Shown piece after piece: positions 20,897 to 45,981 of a stretch of DNA of 64,000 bases. Each line of letters starts with the position of its first letter. The stretch's first letter is position 1. The position numbers and the translations under genes are program-made. Under the pieces are notes generated by a model, which saw only the letters and a program-made list of their open reading frames with translations, was not told the origin of the DNA and ran no database searches. The DNA comes from Naegleria gruberi (Eukaryota), in assembly GCA_000004985.1 (NCBI GenBank), contig GG738851.1, one strand, 5' to 3'.

Positions 20897-20967
20897 CTCG
20901 AGTGCCGGGAATTGAACCCGGGTCGCCAGAGTGACAGTCTGGAATGCTACCACTATACCACACCCGA
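20897..20967 (-). tRNA. tRNA-Asp (anticodon GTC)
   Basis: Reverse complement is TCGGGTG TG GTATAGTGGTAGCAT T CCAGA CTGTCAC TCTGG CGAC CCGGG TTCAATT CCCGG CACTCGA G. Cloverleaf with a 7-bp acceptor stem, TPsiC loop TTCAATT and anticodon loop CT-GTC-AC. It closely resembles eukaryotic tRNA-Asp. Confidence 0.85.
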
Positions 20968-33499: not shown

Positions 33500-34663
33500 T
33501 CAACACAACATTGCCGGCTGCAACATTCGAATAGTTGTGTGTGGTGCAGTTGAAACTGTATTCGAAACTGTTGAAGAATCCTTGTTTCTCCCAACACTGT
33601 GATTCACCACTGTTGAACCAACACAAACCAGATGTTTCACCCTCGCCGATAACATCTTCATCTCTTCATATCCAATTTTACAGTAAGAAAGGTTTAAATT
33701 GATTAATTTGTTTAGGTGGAAACTTTCAGCAATGAATTGTGAGCTTTCTGGACCTAATTTACAAAAGGTCAGGTTTAAATTGGTCAGATTGGAAAGGTAG
33801 GGACTAGAAGATAATTGTTTTGTACCATTATCAGTAATTTCACAATGAGAAAGGTCTAGGTGAATTATATTCGAAAGGTTTCGGCTATTGGACAAGGATT
33901 TGATTCCTTCAAGACCAACTTGGGAGAAAGTTAGATCGAGATGAGTTAGTTGTGTAATGAATTGACTTTGGGAAAGTTGTTTGGCGCCTTCATCTCCTAC
34001 CAAACAGTTTCGTAAATTGAGAGAAAGTAGACGAAAGAAATTTGGAGATGAAGATAAATGATAGAGAGCTTCAGGAGTAAGAGAACAATCGCATAGATCC
34101 AATACTTTCAGATGGGAAAAGTTTGTTGATTGGCAAAGTAATTTGACTCCATCTACACCTATCAAACAACCAGAAAGAATTAGAGACGAAAGTAAACGAA
34201 TGTTTGGACTATCTGCAAGAATTTTGATTTCTTGAGAGGTTACTCTGCATCGAGTTAAATTCAAGTGTTGAAGAGATTTCATTGATGGAGAGGATGAAAT
34301 TAATTCCAAGGAGTTTCCAATAATTGGGACGAAACTGAAATCTAACCTTTGTATACGAAGACAAGTATCAAATCTTTCACTTTTCAAAGTTTCCTCGAAT
34401 ATACTTGCTGCTCTCCTTGTTTTCACTCTAATAGAGAATGGTACTTTCCAACAAGATTCGTACCATTGTTTCGAAATTAAACTACACTTTCCAATAATTA
34501 TTTCAGATGGAATATACTTCAATATTTCAATAATAATTTCATCAGGAATATCAATCAAAACCTGATAATTCCTCTGATAGCTCTTTGTTTGTTGTTGATC
34601 AACAACATGTTTCGAATAACATTGATCCATTTCGTATGATGTTTTCTTTACCAAGTGCATCAA
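33500..34663 (-). CDS. F-box / leucine-rich-repeat protein (RNI/cysteine-containing LRR type)
   Basis: 387-aa ORF. N-terminal F-box LIDIPDEIIIEILKYIPSEIIIGKCSLISKQWYESC, followed by about 10 LRRs of the form LxxLxLxxCxIxDxGxxxL. Confidence 0.75.
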   Translation of the reverse strand: MMHLVKKTSYEMDQCYSKHVVDQQQTKSYQRNYQVLIDIPDEIIIEILKYIPSEIIIGKCSLISKQWYESCWKVPFSIRVKTRRAASIFEETLKSERFDTCLRIQRLDFSFVPIIGNSLELISSSPSMKSLQHLNLTRCRVTSQEIKILADSPNIRLLSSLILSGCLIGVDGVKLLCQSTNFSHLKVLDLCDCSLTPEALYHLSSSPNFFRLLSLNLRNCLVGDEGAKQLSQSQFITQLTHLDLTFSQVGLEGIKSLSNSRNLSNIIHLDLSHCEITDNGTKQLSSSPYLSNLTNLNLTFCKLGPESSQFIAESFHLNKLINLNLSYCKIGYEEMKMLSARVKHLVCVGSTVVNHSVGRNKDSSTVSNTVSTAPHTTIRMLQPAMLC

Positions 34664-34988: not shown

Positions 34989-35062
34989 TACAGCGAGCGG
35001 GGCTTGAACCCGCGACCTTAAGCGTGTTAGGCTTACGATCTAACCAACTGATCTATCGCTGC
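34989..35062 (-). tRNA. tRNA-Val (anticodon AAC)
   Basis: Reverse complement is GCAGCGA TA GATC AGTTGGTTA GATC G TAAGC CTAACAC GCTTA AGGTC GCGGG TTCAAGC CCCGC TCGCTGT A. The anticodon loop CT-AAC-AC is identical to eukaryotic tRNA-Val(AAC). The acceptor stem closes with a G-T wobble. Confidence 0.8.
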
Positions 35063-35835
35063 TTCACACTTTATTTCTGTAATAAATATAATTTTCATGT
35101 TCATATCTTTGGAACTTAATTTAAGAAAAAGAGTATTTTAAAATATATGTTGGAAAGATTGCTACTGTACCTTACTCAACAAATAAAGACATGTAATTTG
35201 ATATAAGTTTACCAGATACGTTTTATCACACTATTATACATCTTGGATCAATTTCACTGTTAGAATAGAATTCAATATGATCATCATAGCATCTGTCAAA
35301 TTGTCACAATTCAATAAAACGATTACACTCCATCTCAGTCAATTTACAAAATACCATACTAGTAATACACTCCCCTTGATGAGGAGAACGGTCTGAGAAA
35401 GTTTCTAATTGACAGCTCAGTATCTTCAAGTCAACTAAGTAACCTTAGAATAGACAAGTCAATTAAATACATAAAGTCAACAATTTAAAATTGAAAAATA
35501 GTACATATTGAACTCTTCTCTGTGTTGCTCTGTTGAACCACTAATTCTCTTTCCAAATAATTTCCAAACGAATATTTAATTTTGAATTTGATGATCATGT
35601 AGTTTCCGTTCTTTCTACTATTCAGAATAACAATTATTAAGGGGCGAATAAAAATATTTTTGAATAACAAGGGGCGTCTACAAACCGTAAATAATATCGC
35701 TGTAAACTCACTGTACTCGATTTCTTTATTATTTCATTCTTTTCTTATTTGGCCCTGTATATATATCATGGATTTATGAATTTATTTGTTCTCACTATTA
35801 CTATTACGACAATAGACTTTTATCTGCTTAAAAAA

Positions 35836-38523
35836 ATGAATGAACATGCAATTCTCACCACTCGTCTCGCCAACGCTCCCTACAAAATCTTCGACTGGGA
35901 TCAAGAAGAGCCTCCTCTCTCTCATGAAAAAGTCATTGAAAACCACTACACTGCTGATGAGATTATTGATGAAGGTATTTCTCCAAATGAATATGGAAGG
36001 GCAAAGTTTATTTCCGAAGCCTTGATGATTGAAAATAGTGGTGTAACAAGACCACCAACAAGTCATGAAGATGATGAACCAAAGTTTTGGAGGAGAAAGG
36101 ATTTGTTGATTCCTGGAAAATCAATTCAAATTTCTTCAAAGATTACGACGGTGCAATTGTTGAACGAGGAAGAGCCTATTGAAGAAAGTGATGATGATTA
36201 TGAGGAAGATGGTTTTGAAACAATGGTCAATCAAGATCGTTGTATTTATATTGGAAGCATACTGTCCGAAACAGAATGTAGTGATTTGATTGATTCCACA
36301 TCAAGATTGGGATATGAGAAAATTGATAAGGAATATCCAAAGGAATATCTTAATAATGAGAGAGTTTTGGTCAAGAGTAAGAAACTTGCAGATATAATTT
36401 GGTCTCGAATTGTTCCATTCTTGAAAAAGTCTGATATTGATGGTGTGAAACCTTATGGTTTTGATAATGATGGTTGTTGGGTTCCTTGTGGAATTAATGA
36501 AGTTTTAAGATTCAACAAGTATAGTCGTGGAAGTTTCTTTAAACCTCACACTGATGCTCAATTCGTTAGAAATGATAATGAAAAATCAATCTTTACAGTG
36601 TTGATCTATTTGAGCTCCTTTTCTTCAACTACAACCTTTTTCCAAAAGGTTGGAGAGAAGATTGAGGATAATAATATTTCTTTTGATTTCAAACAGTTGG
36701 CGTGCATCGACTCAAAAGAAGGAAGTGTTGGTAAGTTGAACAGATTATTGCTAAATAATAATTTAAAGCCATATTTAACCATAATCTCTATCATGCCGGC
36801 GAAAAAATGGCTTATGGATCAAAGTATGTTGTGAGAAGCGAAATTATCTTCAAGAGAATTGATAAGGATAGTATTTATAGTATGGATTATAGAAATAGTG
36901 AAGAATTCAAACGGGTAAAGAAACTCATTGATGATAGCTACGAGTTGGAACGTCAAGGTAATTTAACCCAATCCACCATCAAATATGTCCAAGCTATGGA
37001 CTTGTCCCACTCCATTCAAAAAAAATCAAATAGAAAATTGAGTTTTATTGAAGAAAATCTTCCTGAAGAGATATTCGTTCACATATTTAACTATTTAACA
37101 GATGAAGAGGTCTGTAAAAGTGTCATTCCTATCAATTCTGAAATTAATTCAATTGCTAGATATGAAAACATGTGGGAACAAAGATTTTCTAATAAGTGGG
37201 GATCTAACACATTGGAAAAGTCAATCCTTGATAGAGCTATTAGCGTTAAATACGGTGAAAATTATGAACCTACCAATGAAGAGAAGATTGTATTTCATAG
37301 TAAGGAAAATGAAATTATCAATCTTCTTCAAAAAGATTGGTATAATGCATTTTCAGCCAGATCAAATATGGAAAAATCTTTCAATGCTGTACTTTTAGAT
37401 CTTGGACAACATACTTACAAGTATGGATTAGCAAGTAATAATACATATTGGAGATCAATGACAGCTGTCGGTGAACCTAATCATCCTGACTTTTATTTAC
37501 CATCCTATGGATTTGACGACGTTCTAACAGGGGATAGATTTTTTAACGCTCAATACCATTGTGGATTGAAACCGTTCTTTAACTCTAAAGGAGTACCCAA
37601 GAAGAAGTTGTTCAAAATATTCCTTTATCAGCTCTATAAGGAAGATTTAAGAGTTAAATTACAAGAACATCCTCTTCTCATGGCTGTTCCTCCTCACTGG
37701 GATAAAGAATATTTGAAAAAGGTAGAACAGGTTGTGGTAAGTTTTCTATATTGAAAATTATATTTAAATTCATTGATAGTTTTCTTTAGGTATTCCAGCA
37801 GTTCACTTTGTAAACTCGTTCAAGTTACTTGCATTGTATTATCAAAAACCAACATCCTTAATTCTTAGTGCAACACCATATGGATCGACATGTGTACCAG
37901 TTGTAGATTGTGAGGTTAAGACTGCATGTATGGATATGAATGTGTTTAACATGTACGAGAAGAATAGGAATATGAATAAGGATATGAAATATTTTGAAAT
38001 GACTTTCTGGGCGAAGGTATCAGAATTTTTGAAAATTGCCCCTTGCAGTCCTAGCCAAGATCAACAAGAATTCAATGAATTTGCACAAAACGTTGAACCT
38101 TTCGAATGGATTCCACACCACATGGTTTCACCAGCCAATCAAAGAGCCAATATTTCGGAATTTTTCTATTCTCATGTATGGGAAAATGTACAAAAATCAA
38201 TTACCTTAATTCGTAATCATCAATCTCTTTCCAATATCGAAAAAGAGCTAATGCTAAACAATATTGTAATAGTTGGTGGATTCTCAGCATTGACAGGATT
38301 TAGAGAAAGAATCAAGAAGGACATTTTGGAATATCTTGGAAATGAATACTCTCCATCATTTACTTTTAGAGAGCATAAGGTTGATTATTCTGTCAGAAAA
38401 ATAGGTAACAAGGTCAGCATTGTTGGACAAGATATGGACGTAGTTGGAGGAGCTAGAATTGTTTCCAATCTCTCAAACTTTAGAGAAATTTGTAGTTACA
38501 AGCAAGTAGATAACAAGTGTTAA
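35836..38523 (+). CDS. fusion protein: prolyl-4-hydroxylase-like 2OG-Fe(II) oxygenase domain + F-box + complete actin-fold domain; 3 exons
   Basis: Exons: 35836 (ORF opens at 35749 with TTG; the first ATG is at 35836)..36730, 36769..37736 and 37825..38523. Introns are 38 and 88 nt (gtaagttg..tttaaag, gtaagttt..ttcaag). The P4Hc motifs span intron 1 in frame: RFNKYSRGSFFKPHTDA (HxD) ... SVA|LIFNHNLYHAGEKMAYGSKYVVRSE (second His plus basic residue). The F-box is LPEEIFVHIFNYLTDEEVCKSVIPINSEINSIARYENMWEQRF. Actin-fold blocks are LDLGQHTYKYGLASNN, LRVKLQEHPLLMAVPPHW, LSATPYGSTCVPVVDCEVKTACMD, IVIVGGFSALTGFRERIKKDI and DMDVVGGARIVSNLSNFRE. The protein is about 853 aa. Confidence 0.7.
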
Positions 38524-39342: not shown

Positions 39343-42300
39343 TTAAATTTCCAGTTTGGCTTGTTTGAGTAGATTTTCCTTGTAATTTACAATTTCTTGA
39401 TAGGTCTTGAATTGTTGTGTAAAAATGAATCTAGAAAGAGTATCGCTCAGATTGAAACGAATTTGATTTTGAAGAGATTCTATTGATTCTGTGATTGATT
39501 CTTTCAAACCTTGTGGGAAGTTCATTGTCTTTTTACTTCCCATATTTTCTGCACTTTCTAATTCAACATTCAAATTATCTACAGAATCTAATCTCTTGAC
39601 TAGAGATGCGAATAATTTAGAGCAATCTGATGAAATATTAACTTCTTTCAAGGCTCCCATCTGAATATAAGTAACATAAATATGATTAATGACAGTTTTG
39701 ACTTGTTGGAAATCATTCAAACTTTCAAGAATGTTTTGGTTATTTCTGAGTTCCAAATATAATTGTAAATTTTCGAGTGAATATTCTTTTTCACAGAACC
39801 ATTCAAATAATTTCAAACCTTCACTATGCTCAATGAGCTTTCTAATATCGTCATCATCATCCTGTTTCTCCAATTGTTTTTTCTTGAATTTTTGAATGAT
39901 TAGAATAACCAAAGAGTAACCACCAAACACAAACAAATAACTAAACATGTACAAAATGTCAAACAGTAATGAGATGGAATCATTCAAGAGCAACATCTTT
40001 AGGGAATTTTCTTTTCTGAATGACAATCCTGACAGGCCAATGATTTGTGAGATTACCAAACACGTAAAACACATTACAAATAGACACATTTCAGCTCTAA
40101 AGTAAAGTGGTGAATCCAACCTTGTAAAAGCTTCACGAATTCCATATAGTGGCATTCTTAGAGCTTTTTTAGTTGCTGTGAAATTTTCAAATTTTTCTAA
40201 ACTCTTGCCAGTTATTAAATCATTTAAGGAAAAGTTGAGATTTGTTTTTTCATTATTCTCCTGACCTTGTTGTATAATTTCTCTTTCTTTTCTCTTTGAT
40301 ACGCATGTCATTATTAATTCTAATCCAATAATGCAACAAGTGATGAATCCTAATAAGAGAATGGAGCAGGTAAAGGAGATAGAAACAATATGAGTATAGG
40401 TCAAGCTTGTAATAACCCCAACACGAATAAGAATTACCCATAATACCCAATAAATCACATTCAGTGAAATGAAAAGACACATGAGTATTAGCATTACTCT
40501 TGTTGAAAGGAATAATTTTGTCAACTTGAGAATAGTTTCACCCTTTGGCTCTTTAGAATGGAACATAATATATATTTGATGATAAAAGTATTTCAGTACT
40601 TGGAATCTCACAACTTGATATAAATATGAAAAAAAAGCCGTTAGTGTCATTGTGTTTACAATAATTGTAAAAATATTGGAAATAATATTAGCAACCAAAT
40701 CACCATTCTGTAATTGAATAACTGTTGATTGACTTTGTTCAAAATCCTGCTGATTGCCAATAACACTATTGGCATAGCCCAGTAAAATTCCTCTCTGAGT
40801 GATTAACAGCATTGAACATTCAATAATGAGAGCTGTTATTCCAATATAAGGCGTAATAAATCTACTTCTTACTAGAATTGATTTTCTAAAGGTAACCAAA
40901 AGTGTAAGTATTGTAAGTGAAAGAAGCAAGAATAAACTACCAAATGAAATTTGGGCAATGTAGAGAGAGGAAATTTGCCTGAGATATTCAGTAGATGATG
41001 GGGTTTCTTGTTCAATAAATGCTGCAAAGAGAGTAGCATGATTACATTGGCAGATTAACTGATTAGTTTTGTTGTTAAAACTGAAAATTGAACATCCGTG
41101 GCTTTCCCATCTTTGGTTTGTTTCGTTCCAAAATTGACAACTTAATAACGAAGAATTCGAAATGGAAGAGTTAGTATCTATAGTGAATGTGATGTAAATA
41201 GGATCTCTTAGGTCGGATAAAGAGATTTGTGAACCAGATTTGTACATTGTAAATTCTTTTGATTTGGTTAATTGTGTGGAATTTCCATTGATATATAAAT
41301 TTTCATCAAATGTAATAAGAGACAAACCAATTTCGGAATAATAACCATCATATTTCGAAAGTATATAATCTGTAGCAAAGGAAACATCATTATATATTTG
41401 AGAAATGGTTCCAGTGTTAGATGTTTTGAAAAAGCTTGTAGTTGTTATGTTGATTAGATGTGAAATATAGGAATTAGGCACCATTGAATCTGAATAAACC
41501 TTTGCGTTTTGCTGACTGAGGATAATGGAAGATAATTGATTGCAGATATTCGATATATTAACGTATCCATTCAGCAAAATATTGCTCGTAGTTGATAATG
41601 TATTGAAAAGGTCAGTATCGGACATTCTTTGCTTGGATATAAACCCATTTGAATTCTTTTCAATTCTAACTTGTTCATATACTTTGGACAAGTACTCGTC
41701 TAATTTAGAACTCACTATGTAAGCTGATTTTGTTTCCAAGGAACTTGATGTTAATTGATTAATGACAGAAAGTGTCAAAGAAGGATTTTCGAATTGAATG
41801 TTAATGCTTCTAATGGATTCGTAAAGAATATCTGTATTTTGATTTGCTGATTGATCATATGGTACAATATTGGCCAAAACATTGTTAAGCCTAATTCTCA
41901 AAATCAAATCGTTCAAATCCTCAGAGTTTGGGATCACTTTCACAGAGCCAATAAATTCAGGATATTCATTAAAGAGACTATCTCTACAAATGACATATAA
42001 ATTAATTGAACTAAATGACATGTCATTTGTTCGATTATTTTGAATGAAAGGAAGATAGGTGGTGAGAGAGCTATTAGTGGAAAACTCACTCAGTCTAATC
42101 AAACTGTTCTCTCCAAATGAGTTTATGAACTCGAAACCGAAAGAGAACTCAAGATTGCCAAGAATGGGATCTGGTACTATCCAATTATTTAAATCTTCTT
42201 GAATTGTGAAAAGTGATGAAAGAGCCATACCTGATTGAGGTAAAATGGTGGCATTCGAATGGATTCTTTGGGGTGGTGAAATTAAAGGAAAACTCTCAAC

Positions 42301-45300
42301 AAATTCTACAGATTCTGTTATATTCATAGAGTTGTGGAATTTGACACTTAAAGTAACATTTCCTTGAAGTGAAGATGTAGTTCCTTTCAAGGAAAGAATA
42401 GGTCTAAACGAAAGTTTGAATAGTCCATTGGAAACCTTTCCATGATAATAAGCTATCAAAGATTCTGGCACATAAAAACTAGTTTGATTACCATCACTTA
42501 TTTTCCAAGAATACTTTAAATTTGTCCAAGTACAATTCGTGCAATTATTAGAATTAATAATCGATTCAAAATCTCCCTTTTTAAGAATCACAGAAACAAT
42601 GGACATATAAAATGAATTACTAGTTCCCTTAACAAAACCAGCAGGTTTTCCAATGATTTCTAATGACCTTTCTTCTCTACATTCGTTTCCAACAAATTTC
42701 ACTCCTTCATGACACTTGCAAGTATCAATTCCAATACATTTTCCATTTCCTGAACACACATTCGGATCATTAGATAGTTTTCCAAAGCAGGATGTTAAAT
42801 TACAGACTAATCCTTCTGGTGATTGAGTAAGGATATAGTATTCTTCTTTACAATAAGGAGAAAGCATTCGTATACGGTCATTGCCTGAATCTGAAAATAT
42901 TATTCTACCGTCGCTCAATACTGATAAACCCTGTGGATTGTTAAGATATGCTTGTTTAGCATCGGAATCTCCATTGAATCCTGCTGTTCCATTACCAGCT
43001 ATTATTGTACTATAGCCATTTAAATCTACTTTTCTAATGACATTGTTGTTGGTGTCAGCAATCAACATTTCGCCATTTGACATGTAAGTGAATGAGATAG
43101 AATAACCAAAGGTTGTATTTGTAGAAAAGGTTGTTTGATTCAATAACATTGAATCAATAACGTAACCACATTCCTTTTTCCCTGCTACTCGAGTCAAAAT
43201 TCCAGTTCCTGAAATATTAGTTTTCAATATACTACATCTGTCACTAAAAACTAGCTCATTATTCCTTATTTTCATATCGTAAATGTCTAAACTAGTATAG
43301 TTTGTTGGTACATTGTCTTCCATTTCCACATAATTGTAATTACCAGCAAATGTTGTAATAATTCCACTTGAGAATGAAACTTTTCTAATTCTATAAAAAC
43401 TATCTGACAGATAAATTTCATTATCAGTGAGGGCTAATGCTCTCACAAACCCAACGTAAGCATTGACAGCTAATCCATTATCACCAATACCACCTGCAAT
43501 AGTTTTAACAAAACCAAATGGTGTAACCTTTCGAACTCTATAAAAATCAGTATCACTAAATATCAATTCATTTGTAAATGGAGAAAATGCCACTCCAAAT
43601 GGATGGTTGAGGTTTGTACTAGTTGCCTCCAAATCTCCAGAAAATGGAGGTTGGACAACTCCTTTGGCTCCAGTTCCAGCCACGTTATACACCACATCTG
43701 ATCCATAATTCATCTTTTTGATAATGTGGTCAAGATATACAGCAACGAAGAGATCACCATTTGGAGAGAAGATAATTTGTGAAGGAAAGTTTAAACATGT
43801 TTTGTTTGCATAGCTTGTAGTACTGAAACCAGTGCATCCAGGAATATAGCCAATAACTGTCTTGATTAATCCCTTACTATCAATTTTTCTAACCATAAAT
43901 GAGTTCATATCTGAGAAGTAAATTTCATCTGTAATTGGGTGAACTGAGATTCCAAAAGGTGCTATATTGGTTGCTAGAGCAGCAAGACCATCTCCATTAT
44001 AGGAATAAACCCCAGTCCCAGCAATTGTTGTTATTAGACCAGTACTGTTACTAATCTTTCTAATTCTGTAATTTTCAGAGTCACAGAAAATAATATCACC
44101 ATTAGTTTCGTTGTAATAAACTCCTGTTGGCCCATTTAGAGGGGCAATAATTGCAGGACCCCCATCTCCACTATAACTACGGACACCAGTACCAGCGACG
44201 GTGGTTACTTGATTCGTCTTGGCAGTGAACTTTCTAATTCTTTGATTGTTTAGATAGTTGCCAAAAAACAGCATACCATCGCTTATAGAATCAGAAATTA
44301 ACAAATCGCCATTCGATAGGCAAGTGATGGCAGATGCAAAACCTATCCTGGCAGTTAATGCATCCCCATCTCTGTATCCTGATACTCCATCTCCAATGAA
44401 TGTTGAGATTATGCCATTCGAATCAATCTTTCTAATAACATAATTTCCAGCATCCACAATGTAAATATCACCTGTTGGACCAACACAAACACCTCTTGGT
44501 TGTGACAATTGAGAATAGATACCTTGATAACCATCACCAGCTAAGGTTGTCCTTGTTCCAGCAATAGTGACAGCTCTTTGATCGCTCTTTCTCAGTTTCA
44601 TAACCAAATTTTCAGATCCAACGTAAATGTCACCATTTGATAGAGATTGTACAACTGATCGCGGATAAATTACATCTGTTTCATTTCCAAAATTACCATC
44701 TGCAGAATACGCTCTATTACCAGTACCTAAAATTGGTTCAATCTTTGAGGAAGTATAATTTGATAGAGAATTCAATCTTATAACTCTGCTATTTCCCCAA
44801 TCAGCAATCAGTAATTCATCAGTTTGAGAATTGTAAAAAGTTCCTCTTGGTCTATACAAAGCTACAGAGCTTCCAACAATACCCATATATTTTCTCAAGC
44901 CATTTCCTGCTAATGTTGTAATTATTTTTGTATCCAAATCTATTCTACGTATTCTAAAATTGGAAGTGTCTGCAACGTACAAGAATCGTCCAGAAATAGC
45001 CAATCCTGTTGGATTATTCAAAGTTGCATTGATAGCAAGACCTCCATCTCCACCAAAAGCAGCCACTCCAGCATCGTTGGCCACAACTGTACGTACACTA
45101 TTCGAAATCTTTACAATTTGATGAGTTGACTCTGCCAAGTAGAAGTCTCCAAATGAGTCAAAAACCATTCCAATTGCCCCATTTGTACCACTATACAATG
45201 TGAATATTCTTCCTTCATTGGTGATTCTTCTGACCCTGCCAGTTTCTTCCAAATAAATTAATTCTCTAGTTAGTGGATGGAAAGTTAGAGTCAAAACCTT

Positions 45301-45981
45301 TGCAATACTTGCACTCGCTGCAAGAGATCCTTCTGGTGTATTTTTGTCCTCCACGCCTGTTCCTGCTATGGTATAGATGGTCCCATTAACTATCTTTCGT
45401 ATCGTATATTTGTAAGTATCACTAACATAAATTACATCATTTGCTTCATCAACTAGCAAACCAAATGGAGCACCCAGTTTGGCATCCAATGCAGAAATAT
45501 TACTCGAAAGATTTGAACCACCACCAGCTAGTAAGAGCATTGTATCTTGGCCATAGGAATTTTTATAGACCTTTCGAAGAGTGTTTTCATCTGTAAAGTA
45601 AACCTCTCCTTTAGAATTCACTGCTACACAAAATGGCCAATGAATTGAAGTGGTGGCAGGTGTGGGTCCTTTTGGAAAGTTTGTAGAATCAAAATTATAA
45701 TTGGGATTTCCAGCGAGAAAGTAAGAGTTTCCATCTGGTTTAATGTATCTGATCTGATTGTTTAAATAATCAGAGTAGTATATATTTCCAGTAGTGGAAG
45801 AAATAGCAATAGTTTGTGGCCAAAACATGCCAACAGTTAATGCGTTTTGCCCATCTCCATTAAATCCTCCAAGTAGTGTTGTTATCTTGTAGTTAACATT
45901 TGATGCAGTAGATTGGTCTCCTTTGGCGTTCGCTAGCAGAAGTAAGACAAAGATATACGTCATAAGATTAGAACATGACAT
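39343..45981 (-). CDS. giant adhesion-GPCR-like receptor: signal peptide, NHL-repeat beta-propeller region, EGF-like, GPS motif, 7TM, C-terminal RGS domain
   Basis: Uninterrupted 2212-codon ORF. N-terminal signal peptide MSCSNLMTYIFVLLLLANAKG. About 900 aa of NHL-type repeats. EGF repeat CFGKLSNDPNVCSGNGKCIGIDTCKCHEGVKFVGNEC. GPS motif CQFWNETNQRWESHGCSIFSFNNKTNQLICQCNHATLFAAF lies immediately before 7 hydrophobic helices. RGS box KLIEHSEGLKLFEWFCEKEYSLENLQLYLELRNN sits after TM7. Confidence 0.85.
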   Translation of the reverse strand: MSCSNLMTYIFVLLLLANAKGDQSTASNVNYKITTLLGGFNGDGQNALTVGMFWPQTIAISSTTGNIYYSDYLNNQIRYIKPDGNSYFLAGNPNYNFDSTNFPKGPTPATTSIHWPFCVAVNSKGEVYFTDENTLRKVYKNSYGQDTMLLLAGGGSNLSSNISALDAKLGAPFGLLVDEANDVIYVSDTYKYTIRKIVNGTIYTIAGTGVEDKNTPEGSLAASASIAKVLTLTFHPLTRELIYLEETGRVRRITNEGRIFTLYSGTNGAIGMVFDSFGDFYLAESTHQIVKISNSVRTVVANDAGVAAFGGDGGLAINATLNNPTGLAISGRFLYVADTSNFRIRRIDLDTKIITTLAGNGLRKYMGIVGSSVALYRPRGTFYNSQTDELLIADWGNSRVIRLNSLSNYTSSKIEPILGTGNRAYSADGNFGNETDVIYPRSVVQSLSNGDIYVGSENLVMKLRKSDQRAVTIAGTRTTLAGDGYQGIYSQLSQPRGVCVGPTGDIYIVDAGNYVIRKIDSNGIISTFIGDGVSGYRDGDALTARIGFASAITCLSNGDLLISDSISDGMLFFGNYLNNQRIRKFTAKTNQVTTVAGTGVRSYSGDGGPAIIAPLNGPTGVYYNETNGDIIFCDSENYRIRKISNSTGLITTIAGTGVYSYNGDGLAALATNIAPFGISVHPITDEIYFSDMNSFMVRKIDSKGLIKTVIGYIPGCTGFSTTSYANKTCLNFPSQIIFSPNGDLFVAVYLDHIIKKMNYGSDVVYNVAGTGAKGVVQPPFSGDLEATSTNLNHPFGVAFSPFTNELIFSDTDFYRVRKVTPFGFVKTIAGGIGDNGLAVNAYVGFVRALALTDNEIYLSDSFYRIRKVSFSSGIITTFAGNYNYVEMEDNVPTNYTSLDIYDMKIRNNELVFSDRCSILKTNISGTGILTRVAGKKECGYVIDSMLLNQTTFSTNTTFGYSISFTYMSNGEMLIADTNNNVIRKVDLNGYSTIIAGNGTAGFNGDSDAKQAYLNNPQGLSVLSDGRIIFSDSGNDRIRMLSPYCKEEYYILTQSPEGLVCNLTSCFGKLSNDPNVCSGNGKCIGIDTCKCHEGVKFVGNECREERSLEIIGKPAGFVKGTSNSFYMSIVSVILKKGDFESIINSNNCTNCTWTNLKYSWKISDGNQTSFYVPESLIAYYHGKVSNGLFKLSFRPILSLKGTTSSLQGNVTLSVKFHNSMNITESVEFVESFPLISPPQRIHSNATILPQSGMALSSLFTIQEDLNNWIVPDPILGNLEFSFGFEFINSFGENSLIRLSEFSTNSSLTTYLPFIQNNRTNDMSFSSINLYVICRDSLFNEYPEFIGSVKVIPNSEDLNDLILRIRLNNVLANIVPYDQSANQNTDILYESIRSINIQFENPSLTLSVINQLTSSSLETKSAYIVSSKLDEYLSKVYEQVRIEKNSNGFISKQRMSDTDLFNTLSTTSNILLNGYVNISNICNQLSSIILSQQNAKVYSDSMVPNSYISHLINITTTSFFKTSNTGTISQIYNDVSFATDYILSKYDGYYSEIGLSLITFDENLYINGNSTQLTKSKEFTMYKSGSQISLSDLRDPIYITFTIDTNSSISNSSLLSCQFWNETNQRWESHGCSIFSFNNKTNQLICQCNHATLFAAFIEQETPSSTEYLRQISSLYIAQISFGSLFLLLSLTILTLLVTFRKSILVRSRFITPYIGITALIIECSMLLITQRGILLGYANSVIGNQQDFEQSQSTVIQLQNGDLVANIISNIFTIIVNTMTLTAFFSYLYQVVRFQVLKYFYHQIYIMFHSKEPKGETILKLTKLFLSTRVMLILMCLFISLNVIYWVLWVILIRVGVITSLTYTHIVSISFTCSILLLGFITCCIIGLELIMTCVSKRKEREIIQQGQENNEKTNLNFSLNDLITGKSLEKFENFTATKKALRMPLYGIREAFTRLDSPLYFRAEMCLFVMCFTCLVISQIIGLSGLSFRKENSLKMLLLNDSISLLFDILYMFSYLFVFGGYSLVILIIQKFKKKQLEKQDDDDDIRKLIEHSEGLKLFEWFCEKEYSLENLQLYLELRNNQNILESLNDFQQVKTVINHIYVTYIQMGALKEVNISSDCSKLFASLVKRLDSVDNLNVELESAENMGSKKTMNFPQGLKESITESIESLQNQIRFNLSDTLSRFIFTQQFKTYQEIVNYKENLLKQAKLEI

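Follow-up and report, generated by a model that had tools for sequence, protein, structure and literature searches.

Does a single protist gene encode a prolyl-4-hydroxylase (P4H)-like oxygenase, an F-box and an actin fold in one polypeptide, and, if so, what would such a protein do? The question is raised by positions 35836 to 38523 of the window, by which I mean the whole 64,000-nucleotide stretch of contig GG738851.1 analyzed here. The window has a GC content of 34%, and its best protein matches are Naegleria proteins. A preliminary description of the locus proposed a three-exon gene fusing a complete P4H-like 2-oxoglutarate (2OG) oxygenase to an F-box and a full actin fold. It regarded the product either as a self-targeting modifier of Skp1 or as a substrate receptor of an SCF (Skp1-cullin-F-box) ubiquitin ligase endowed with enzymatic activity. 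The comparisons reported below uphold the fusion and, as judged from sequence, make the enzymatic receptor the best of these ideas. The reading that I favor, and to which I give a little better than an even chance, is that the product is a Skp1-docked, O2- and 2OG-dependent protein hydroxylase with an actin fold in the substrate-receptor position, belonging to an uncharacterized protist family.

Gene model and splice junctions

Three + strand open reading frames (ORFs) lie in different frames, at the positions initially given for them (35749..36834, 36807..37754 and 37834..38523). The gene that runs through them has three exons, a coding sequence at 35836..38523 (+) and a product of 868 amino acids:

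35836..36730, + strand: exon 1, codons 1-298 and the first base of codon 299 (ORF, translation, tblastn)
36731..36768, + strand: intron 1, 38 nt, GTAAGT...TTTAAAG, phase 1
36769..37736, + strand: exon 2, last two bases of codon 299 through codon 621
37737..37779, + strand: intron 2, 43 nt, GTAAGT...TTGATAG, phase 0
37780..38523, + strand: exon 3, codons 622-868 and the TAA, encoding the remaining two thirds of the actin fold

Exon 1 covers the N-terminus, which is acidic and disordered, and the oxygenase for the first three quarters of its length, HxD motif included; exon 2 takes the oxygenase to its end and continues through a helical linker and the F-box into the actin fold, of which it encodes the first third. 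The product is 82% identical to N. gruberi NAEGRDRAFT_80947 (XP_002673299, D2VR76) and equal to it in length (868 amino acids). The stop codon is the TAA at 38521-38523. The start codon, ATG 35836, is backed by an N-terminal motif, M-x-E-[RH]-A..WD, common to the N. lovaniensis and N. fowleri paralogues. Two public models look imperfect: that of N. gruberi (XP_002673299) lacks this motif of the window gene and its paralogues, and that of N. fowleri (XP_044557782, 832 amino acids) lacks the first half of the F-box, an 884-amino-acid alternative being available.

Intron 1 divides the oxygenase core at a point after the HxD motif and before the second His. Joining 35836..36730 to 36769..37736 restores the frame through AIFNHNLYHAGEKMAYGSKYVVRSE, and retention of the intron introduces a stop codon. 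A contig from ENA (L002) that encodes a homologue of 67% amino acid identity lacks exactly these 38 bases, and N. lovaniensis encodes EGAVAIFNHDLYH uninterrupted across the site; intron 1 is therefore proven comparatively, precisely in the form in which it was first proposed. The peptide LIFNH that had been read at the junction does not survive, since the split codon G|CC specifies Ala and the sequence is AIFNHNLYHAGEK. Another contig, 97% identical, retains the intron. This metagenomic sequence (L001; ENA ERZ929261, contig k127_25938) has 96.5% DNA identity to positions 35505-36983 of the window, intron 1 included; the same or a very close Naegleria is therefore present in that sample. For a dN/dS estimate against this contig, only 14 mismatches were available. 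Its intron 1 was translated straight through by a prokaryotic gene caller.

For intron 2, the proposed donor at 37737 stands and the proposed acceptor does not. An intron of 88 nt (acceptor 37823-37824) was rejected because it deletes 15 conserved residues of the actin core, FSLGIPAVHFVNSFK. The AG at 37778-37779 is used instead, giving an intron of 43 nt. Searching with the N. gruberi orthologue by tblastn yields high-scoring segment pairs at 35944-36732, 36768-37745 and 37780-38517, and the restart at 37780 fits the shorter intron. The 15 residues thereby gained align to actin FETFNVPAMYVAIQA, the actin alignment is continuous over the junction, and the segment is present in all homologues aligned; with it, the product also comes to the 868 amino acids of the N. 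gruberi protein. Conservation of intron position was checked in N. lovaniensis, where a paralogue carries a 54-nt GTAAGT..AG intron at the identical place (KSDV|FSLGIPG). A further candidate acceptor, the AG at 37788-37789, follows a good polypyrimidine tract; it was rejected as being out of frame with every possible GT donor. The GC content is 21% in intron 1, 16% in intron 2 and 34% in the exons, and neither intron length is a multiple of 3.

That one gene encodes all three modules is borne out by JGI contig L004, where a single uninterrupted ORF of 674 amino acids contains oxygenase, F-box and actin domains, and by annotated models elsewhere. The actin-like region is thus not a separate neighboring Arp gene, an outcome for which the preliminary description had allowed. 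On these comparisons, the three-exon fusion gene is real and its predicted product is a single polypeptide. No paralogue of the gene was found elsewhere in the window.

An intact oxygenase and a degenerate actin fold

The motifs quoted at the outset, namely KPHTDA, the F-box stretch LPEEIFVHIFNYL...WEQRF, LDLGQHTYKYG and DMDVVGGARIVSNLSNFRE, are all present in the translation, which is organized as follows:

36082..36117, + strand: conserved motif KFWRRKDLLIPG, residues 83-94, in the otherwise disordered N-terminal region (alignment)
36217..36863, + strand: P4H-like 2OG/Fe(II) oxygenase, residues 128-330, interrupted by intron 1
36864..37049, + strand: conserved helical linker, residues 331-392
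37059..37187, + strand: F-box, residues 396-438, LPEEIFVHIFNYLTDEEVCKSVIPINSEINSIARYENMWEQRF
37332..38520, + strand: actin fold with the conserved lead-in helix KDWY..R..MEK, residues 487-868, interrupted by intron 2

Structures were modeled on the N. gruberi orthologue and on its domain substring, standing in for the 82% identical window protein. Judged by its Fe and 2OG ligands, the oxygenase is catalytically intact. These ligands, H238 (codon 36547-36549), D240 (36553-36555), H307 (36792-36794) and K317 (36822-36824), are invariant among close relatives. In 144 near-complete domains of the wider family, the first His and the Asp are found in all 144, the second His in 142 (the other two having gaps) and the Lys in 138. 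To go by the alignments, the domain is under strict purifying selection for catalysis. The Pfam family 2OG-FeII_Oxy_3 is matched in 11 of 11 relatives at E up to 0.01 (best 1.2e-13), and the domain model (N. gruberi orthologue, 17 aligned sequences; predicted local distance difference test, pLDDT, 88.6) displays a double-stranded beta-helix with N-terminal helices.

Which kind of P4H this is matters for function, since a grouping with the Skp1 hydroxylases had been considered. A profile search of the PDB with the oxygenase returned only the P4H of B. anthracis (3.6e-4) and Chlamydomonas P4H-1 (1.5e-3); no PhyA or PHD appeared in it at E up to 10. In a comparison with solved structures (score, identity), the PBCV-1 viral collagen P4H (5c5t) came first (17.7, 22%), followed by PPHD (15.9, 12%), DdPhyA (15.5, 14%), CrP4H (15.4, 20%), P4HTM (14.3, 20%) and PHD2 (13.9, 14%). 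Foldseek does not separate the subfamilies, as PPHD, DdPhyA, CrP4H, PiuC and PHD2 all give template-modeling (TM) scores of 0.5-0.6. The 2OG ligand is Lys317, 10 residues past the distal His307, and not an Arg at +9. Collagen P4H has the +10 Lys spacing (H483/K493), and PHD2 has an Arg (H374/R383). Because of the PDB profile and structure comparisons and of the Lys ten residues past the distal His, I call the oxygenase collagen/viral/algal-type P4H-like and not a PhyA orthologue; the evidence points away from the Skp1 hydroxylases.

Pfam detects no JmjC domain in the window protein or its relatives, an NCBIfam scan gave nothing useful, and no signal peptide is evident by eye. The nearest free-standing relatives of the oxygenase are proteins of ~190 amino acids from metagenomes and a Kofleriaceae bacterium. 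A loop, V[KR]P[YF]GFxNxGxW (window 36445-36480 (+), residues 204-215), is invariant in the eukaryotic family and absent from three standalone bacterial-type homologues of that size (P0018, P0020 and P0024). It is a candidate substrate-binding element, and a family-specific loop conserved in this way suggests one conserved substrate.

The helical linker comprises helices 337-354 and 358-375 in the orthologue model, and a hidden Markov model (HMM) of the family linker matches most representatives. The F-box that follows is predicted in the same model to consist of helices 396-403, 408-415 and 420-426 (block pLDDT 61-76). F-box-like is matched at the same position in 9 of 11 relatives (best 7.7e-11; best in the wider family, 3.8e-15). 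The stretch LPEEIFVHIFNYL has the canonical form; in its second half the F-box diverges in Naegleria and is canonical (VCQRW) in a metagenomic relative. The predicted layout is that of a three-helix F-box followed by a C-terminal domain of protein-binding type, here the actin fold. At the other end of the protein, residues 17-127 of the orthologue model have a pLDDT below 50, and the motif KFWRRxDxLxPG (residues 83-94), which is conserved amid this disordered, acidic region, may be a docking motif.

The actin fold is recognized in the window protein well above the Pfam cut-off (PF00022; E 5e-13, 48.9 bits, cut-off 27) and in 10 of 11 relatives (best 1.8e-20). It forms the good part of the full-length model, its 10-residue block means being mostly 67-93 pLDDT, and Foldseek aligns it to actins with E ~4e-18 and a TM score of 0.75-0.79 over ~390 columns, at 16-17% identity. 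The PDB profile search with this domain is headed by conventional actins (1.7e-17), and Arp7 (2.5e-11) is the only Arp among the best 60 matches. Among the matches listed in the profile search and by Foldseek, actins lead, and the domain is no closer to any named Arp subfamily (Arp1-Arp11) than to actin.

The claim that all actin landmarks are present holds for the structural ones and fails for the nucleotide site, whose residues are largely lost. With a rabbit actin sequence used only as a numbering ruler, the landmarks conserved in the family are G13, G20, G55, H101-P102, P130, G156, G301-G302, R312 and G342, and the residues replaced are S14, G15, Q137, D154, D157, H161 and K336. The window protein has S14Q, G15H, Q137F, D154S, G156T, D157P and H161T (a MAFFT alignment places Ser rather than Phe at 137, the Gln being lost in both alignments), and keeps only D11, G13 and K18 of the nucleotide-site positions checked, K213/E214 being among them. 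Its second phosphate loop reads SATPYG, where actin has DSGDGV. Of 39 family domains, none retains Q137, H161 or K336, 6 retain S14, and D154 and D157 are each retained by 5. From these replacements, I infer that the actin fold is a pseudo-ATPase used for binding. The equivalent of the actin D-loop (window ~37476-37500 (+), residues 533-541, GEPNHPDFY) is the most conserved actin-domain motif of the family, G-x-P-x-H-P-H-F-Y; its second His, in the column of window residue 539, is found in 36 of 39 members, and the window protein has Asp there (HPDF).

A protist family and its proposed function

Gene models with the three domains in this order are annotated in N. gruberi, N. fowleri, Willaertia magna and, as five paralogues, N. 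lovaniensis; an Acrasis kona model comprises oxygenase, F-box and the beginning of the actin-like region. A word-indexed protein search had confined the family to Heterolobosea. That view was overturned by an exhaustive HMMER search with the family profile, which found 456 representatives with an E-value of at most 1e-30. Among these, the top 150 reach E ~1e-51 or better, and the ones sorted by local HMMs have the family oxygenase. Named amoebozoan members come from Physarum polycephalum, Tieghemostelium, Acytostelium, Heterostelium, Cavenderia and Polysphondylium, and all sampled dictyostelids have one; D. firmibasis, D. citrinum, D. purpureum, the testate amoeba Pyxidicula and the centrohelid Pterocystis add further names. 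In D. discoideum AX4 the member is DDB_G0281783 (Q54TF2), with 781 amino acids and the same three Pfam domains; annotated tri-domain proteins are likewise found in Physarum, Tieghemostelium, Acytostelium, Cavenderia and Polysphondylium. Pfam 2OG, F-box and Actin were confirmed in the four representatives tested, namely those of Physarum and Tieghemostelium and two others (Actin E to 9e-36). The spread thus covers Heterolobosea, Amoebozoa and a centrohelid.

The constant core consists of oxygenase, helical linker and F-box, followed in most members by an actin-like C-terminus and in two by ankyrin repeats in its place. Extra domains occur occasionally: rhodanese or NADAR ahead of the oxygenase, and WW, Macro or WWE. 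A D. purpureum protein of 2127 amino acids has TPR far downstream of the actin-like region, and STAND-like regions (the variant architectures are those of P0041, P0052, P0053 and P0070, alignment A6). Many members end in 300-400 residues without a Pfam match, perhaps actin folds that have diverged very far.

Every member carries one of three annotations: hypothetical, 'F-box domain-containing' or 'Fe2OG dioxygenase domain-containing'. In the open-access literature and a few supplementary tables, no paper was found that names NAEGRDRAFT_80947, D2VR76, FDP41_008733, DDB_G0281783 or Q54TF2. The same literature yielded no description of a P4H, F-box and actin architecture and no papers on Naegleria Skp1, PhyA or Gnt1, and DDB_G0281783 is not among the entries of a survey of the Dictyostelium actinome. 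The early statement that the architecture is undescribed thus holds for the publications covered; it does not hold as a claim of uniqueness to this genome, as a broad protist family sits in the databases as hypothetical proteins. What is new is this broad conserved family, with its architecture and degenerate actin fold, the gene itself being an orthologue of database entries.

What could the assembly do? The parts come in a fixed order. A disordered N-terminus leads into an intact P4H-like oxygenase, a helical linker joins this to an F-box, and an actin fold that has lost most of its ATP-site residues comes last. In canonical F-box proteins the substrate-binding domain lies C-terminal to the F-box. 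Because the actin fold occupies that place, and ankyrin repeats fill the same slot in variants, it would be the receptor, with the task of binding proteins and not of hydrolyzing ATP or joining a polymer. The F-box would dock the protein on Skp1, and hence in or next to an SCF ubiquitin ligase. The oxygenase would hydroxylate a conserved protein partner, probably on proline and in dependence on O2 and 2OG, the partner being either recruited by the actin-like domain or a member of the complex, and this would couple hydroxylation to ubiquitination or to turnover of the protein itself. There is a precedent for an F-box dioxygenase in Dictyostelium, JcdI/Fbxo13, which binds Skp1, requires it for solubility and has a Km for O2 of ~22% (PMC9485057).

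Several points weigh against this reading. The HMM scans of the window protein, which place Actin above its cut-off, leave the other two domains below theirs: the oxygenase reaches 26.9 bits against 27 (PF13640 2OG-FeII_Oxy_3, E 9.5e-06), and the F-box 18.6 against 24.3 bits (F-box-like, E 0.0016), with a match to the first helix only. Prediction of the full chain on the orthologue gave the good actin fold and the three-helix F-box layout; the model as a whole is mediocre (pLDDT 63.8, predicted TM score 0.49), and its domain packing is not reliable. The argument for the actin fold as receptor is one of position, and proline, the probable target, is read from fold neighbors of 12-22% identity. 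In JcdI, moreover, the F-box is dispensable for the O2 phenotype and is proposed to mediate reduced protein levels (PMC9485057). Since that F-box is not needed for the phenotype, Skp1 docking may, by analogy, regulate stability rather than substrate delivery.

This last point leads to the main rival, in which the F-box chiefly controls the enzyme's own level. The hydroxylase and the actin-like module would act outside the SCF, for instance on actin or actin-binding proteins, and the F-box would mainly set the abundance of the protein through Skp1 and autoubiquitination. I consider this unlikely, although it draws on the JcdI F-box, which is unneeded for O2-sensing (PMC9485057), and on the prospect of a fold derived from actin pairing with or mimicking actin; against it, the position of the F-box and the linker are conserved over very distant lineages. 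By analogy, actin or actin-binding proteins would be attractive substrates. The one paper found to report prolyl hydroxylation of actin concerns non-muscle actin and PHD3 (PMC4161513), and by the account of another the PHD3-actin case is in a class of non-HIF substrates that failed in vitro reconstitution (PMC6739866). The actin fold might also function as a true actin or Arp, binding nucleotide and taking hydroxylase and F-box with it into filaments or Arp complexes. Its topology and TM scores are those of a complete actin, conventional actins outscore Arp7, the one Arp in the profile search matches cited above, and D11, G13, G156 and G301-G302 are often retained in the family; with Q137 and H161 never conserved, S14, D154, D157 and K336 rarely or never kept, SATPYG in place of DSGDGV and 16-17% identity to actin, this seems very improbable.

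If the F-box tethers the hydroxylase to Skp1, it could instead hydroxylate Skp1 itself, in the self-targeting version of the PhyA pathway first suggested for this locus. This idea has fared badly and now looks distinctly improbable. The oxygenase is of the collagen/viral type by its profile matches (the P4Hs of B. anthracis and Chlamydomonas, PhyA and PHD being absent at E up to 10) and by its Lys at +10, a collagen-type signature, instead of Arg at +9. Dictyostelium Skp1 is reported to be unmodified in phyA- cells (PMC9485057), and since D. discoideum has a family member, DDB_G0281783, this argues against a self-modifier of Skp1 Pro143. It remains that the whole protein might be an artefact, three neighboring ORFs or genes, or a decaying pseudogene, joined on paper. 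The marginal scores of two domains in the window copy would fit, but the intron-less homologues and the single-ORF tri-domain contig, the equal length and 82% identity of the N. gruberi protein, the integrity of every catalytic ligand and the intron position conserved with N. lovaniensis leave this hardly any credence.

The Skp1-docked hydroxylase can be taken further, into a speculative and rather unlikely form: an O2/2OG-gated SCF adaptor in amoeboid protists of two distant supergroups, in which a non-hydrolysing actin mimic would capture actin-binding proteins or actin, the hydroxylase would mark them and the SCF would ubiquitinate them. If true, oxygen and metabolic state would be wired directly to remodeling of the actin cytoskeleton, by a protist route parallel to PHD/VHL and PhyA/Skp1.

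The surroundings of the gene include the following loci:

20897-20967, - strand: tRNA-Asp(GTC)
33500-34663, - strand: F-box and leucine-rich repeat (LRR) protein, upstream neighbor (Pfam F-box 1.9e-7, LRR_6 6.9e-18)
34989-35062, - strand: tRNA-Val(AAC), just upstream of the gene
39343-45981, - strand: single ORF of 2212 amino acids with NHL/teneurin-NHL repeats, a GPS motif and a C-terminal RGS domain

A N. lovaniensis paralogue also adjoins an F-box-like gene (L003 6914-8573 (-)); such neighbors may be due to chance, F-box genes looking abundant in Naegleria. From its domains, the 2212-amino-acid ORF looks like an adhesion receptor of the G-protein-coupled type fused to an RGS domain.

Comparison with known systems

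F-box proteins with an oxygenase of their own are rare. Animal KDM2A and KDM2B combine JmjC, F-box and LRR. JcdI/Fbxo13 (F-box and JmjC) resembles the window protein in having an F-box and a 2OG/Fe(II) dioxygenase in one chain; it is O2-limited and binds Skp1 via its F-box (PMC9485057). In contrast to both, the window oxygenase is of the classical P4H type (PF13640), lies N-terminal to the F-box and is not JmjC, and none of the others has a C-terminal actin fold. In the cases studied, JcdI and KDM2, protein fate is tied to the level of oxygen or of metabolites. The present family adds an enzyme of prolyl-hydroxylase type and, to judge by the searches made here, the first F-box proteins whose C-terminal domain is an actin fold.

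Identity to the solved P4Hs, PBCV-1 vCPH (5c5t), Chlamydomonas P4H-1 (2jig/3gze) and B. anthracis P4H (3itq/5hv0), is only 18-22%, and whereas collagen, viral and algal P4Hs are free-standing or belong to the endoplasmic reticulum and secretory pathway, the window enzyme is fused to an F-box and an actin fold. It differs from PhyA and PHD (EGLN) in giving no profile match and in having Lys, not Arg, as ligand; PhyA has no F-box, and Skp1 hydroxylation in Dictyostelium depends on PhyA although the family of the window gene is present there. With actin and the orphan Arps, the C-terminal domain shares the complete four-subdomain fold and the structural Gly and Pro landmarks. It differs from them in its 16-17% identity, in the loss of nucleotide and catalytic residues and in being embedded C-terminally in an F-box protein, and among the PDB matches listed it is not nearer to Arp7 than to actin.

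The closest comparisons are with database entries. NAEGRDRAFT_80947 is the direct orthologue of the window protein and DDB_G0281783 a family member; their annotation goes no further than predicted, hypothetical or 'F-box domain-containing', and no functional study of either was found in the open-access literature. The strict conservation of Fe and 2OG ligands in 144 divergent copies, together with the spread over Heterolobosea, Amoebozoa and a centrohelid, points to a real, shared function. In Naegleria, including N. fowleri, the family is a candidate link between oxygen sensing and amoeboid motility, and the presence of DDB_G0281783 in D. discoideum makes the question open to genetic tests now.

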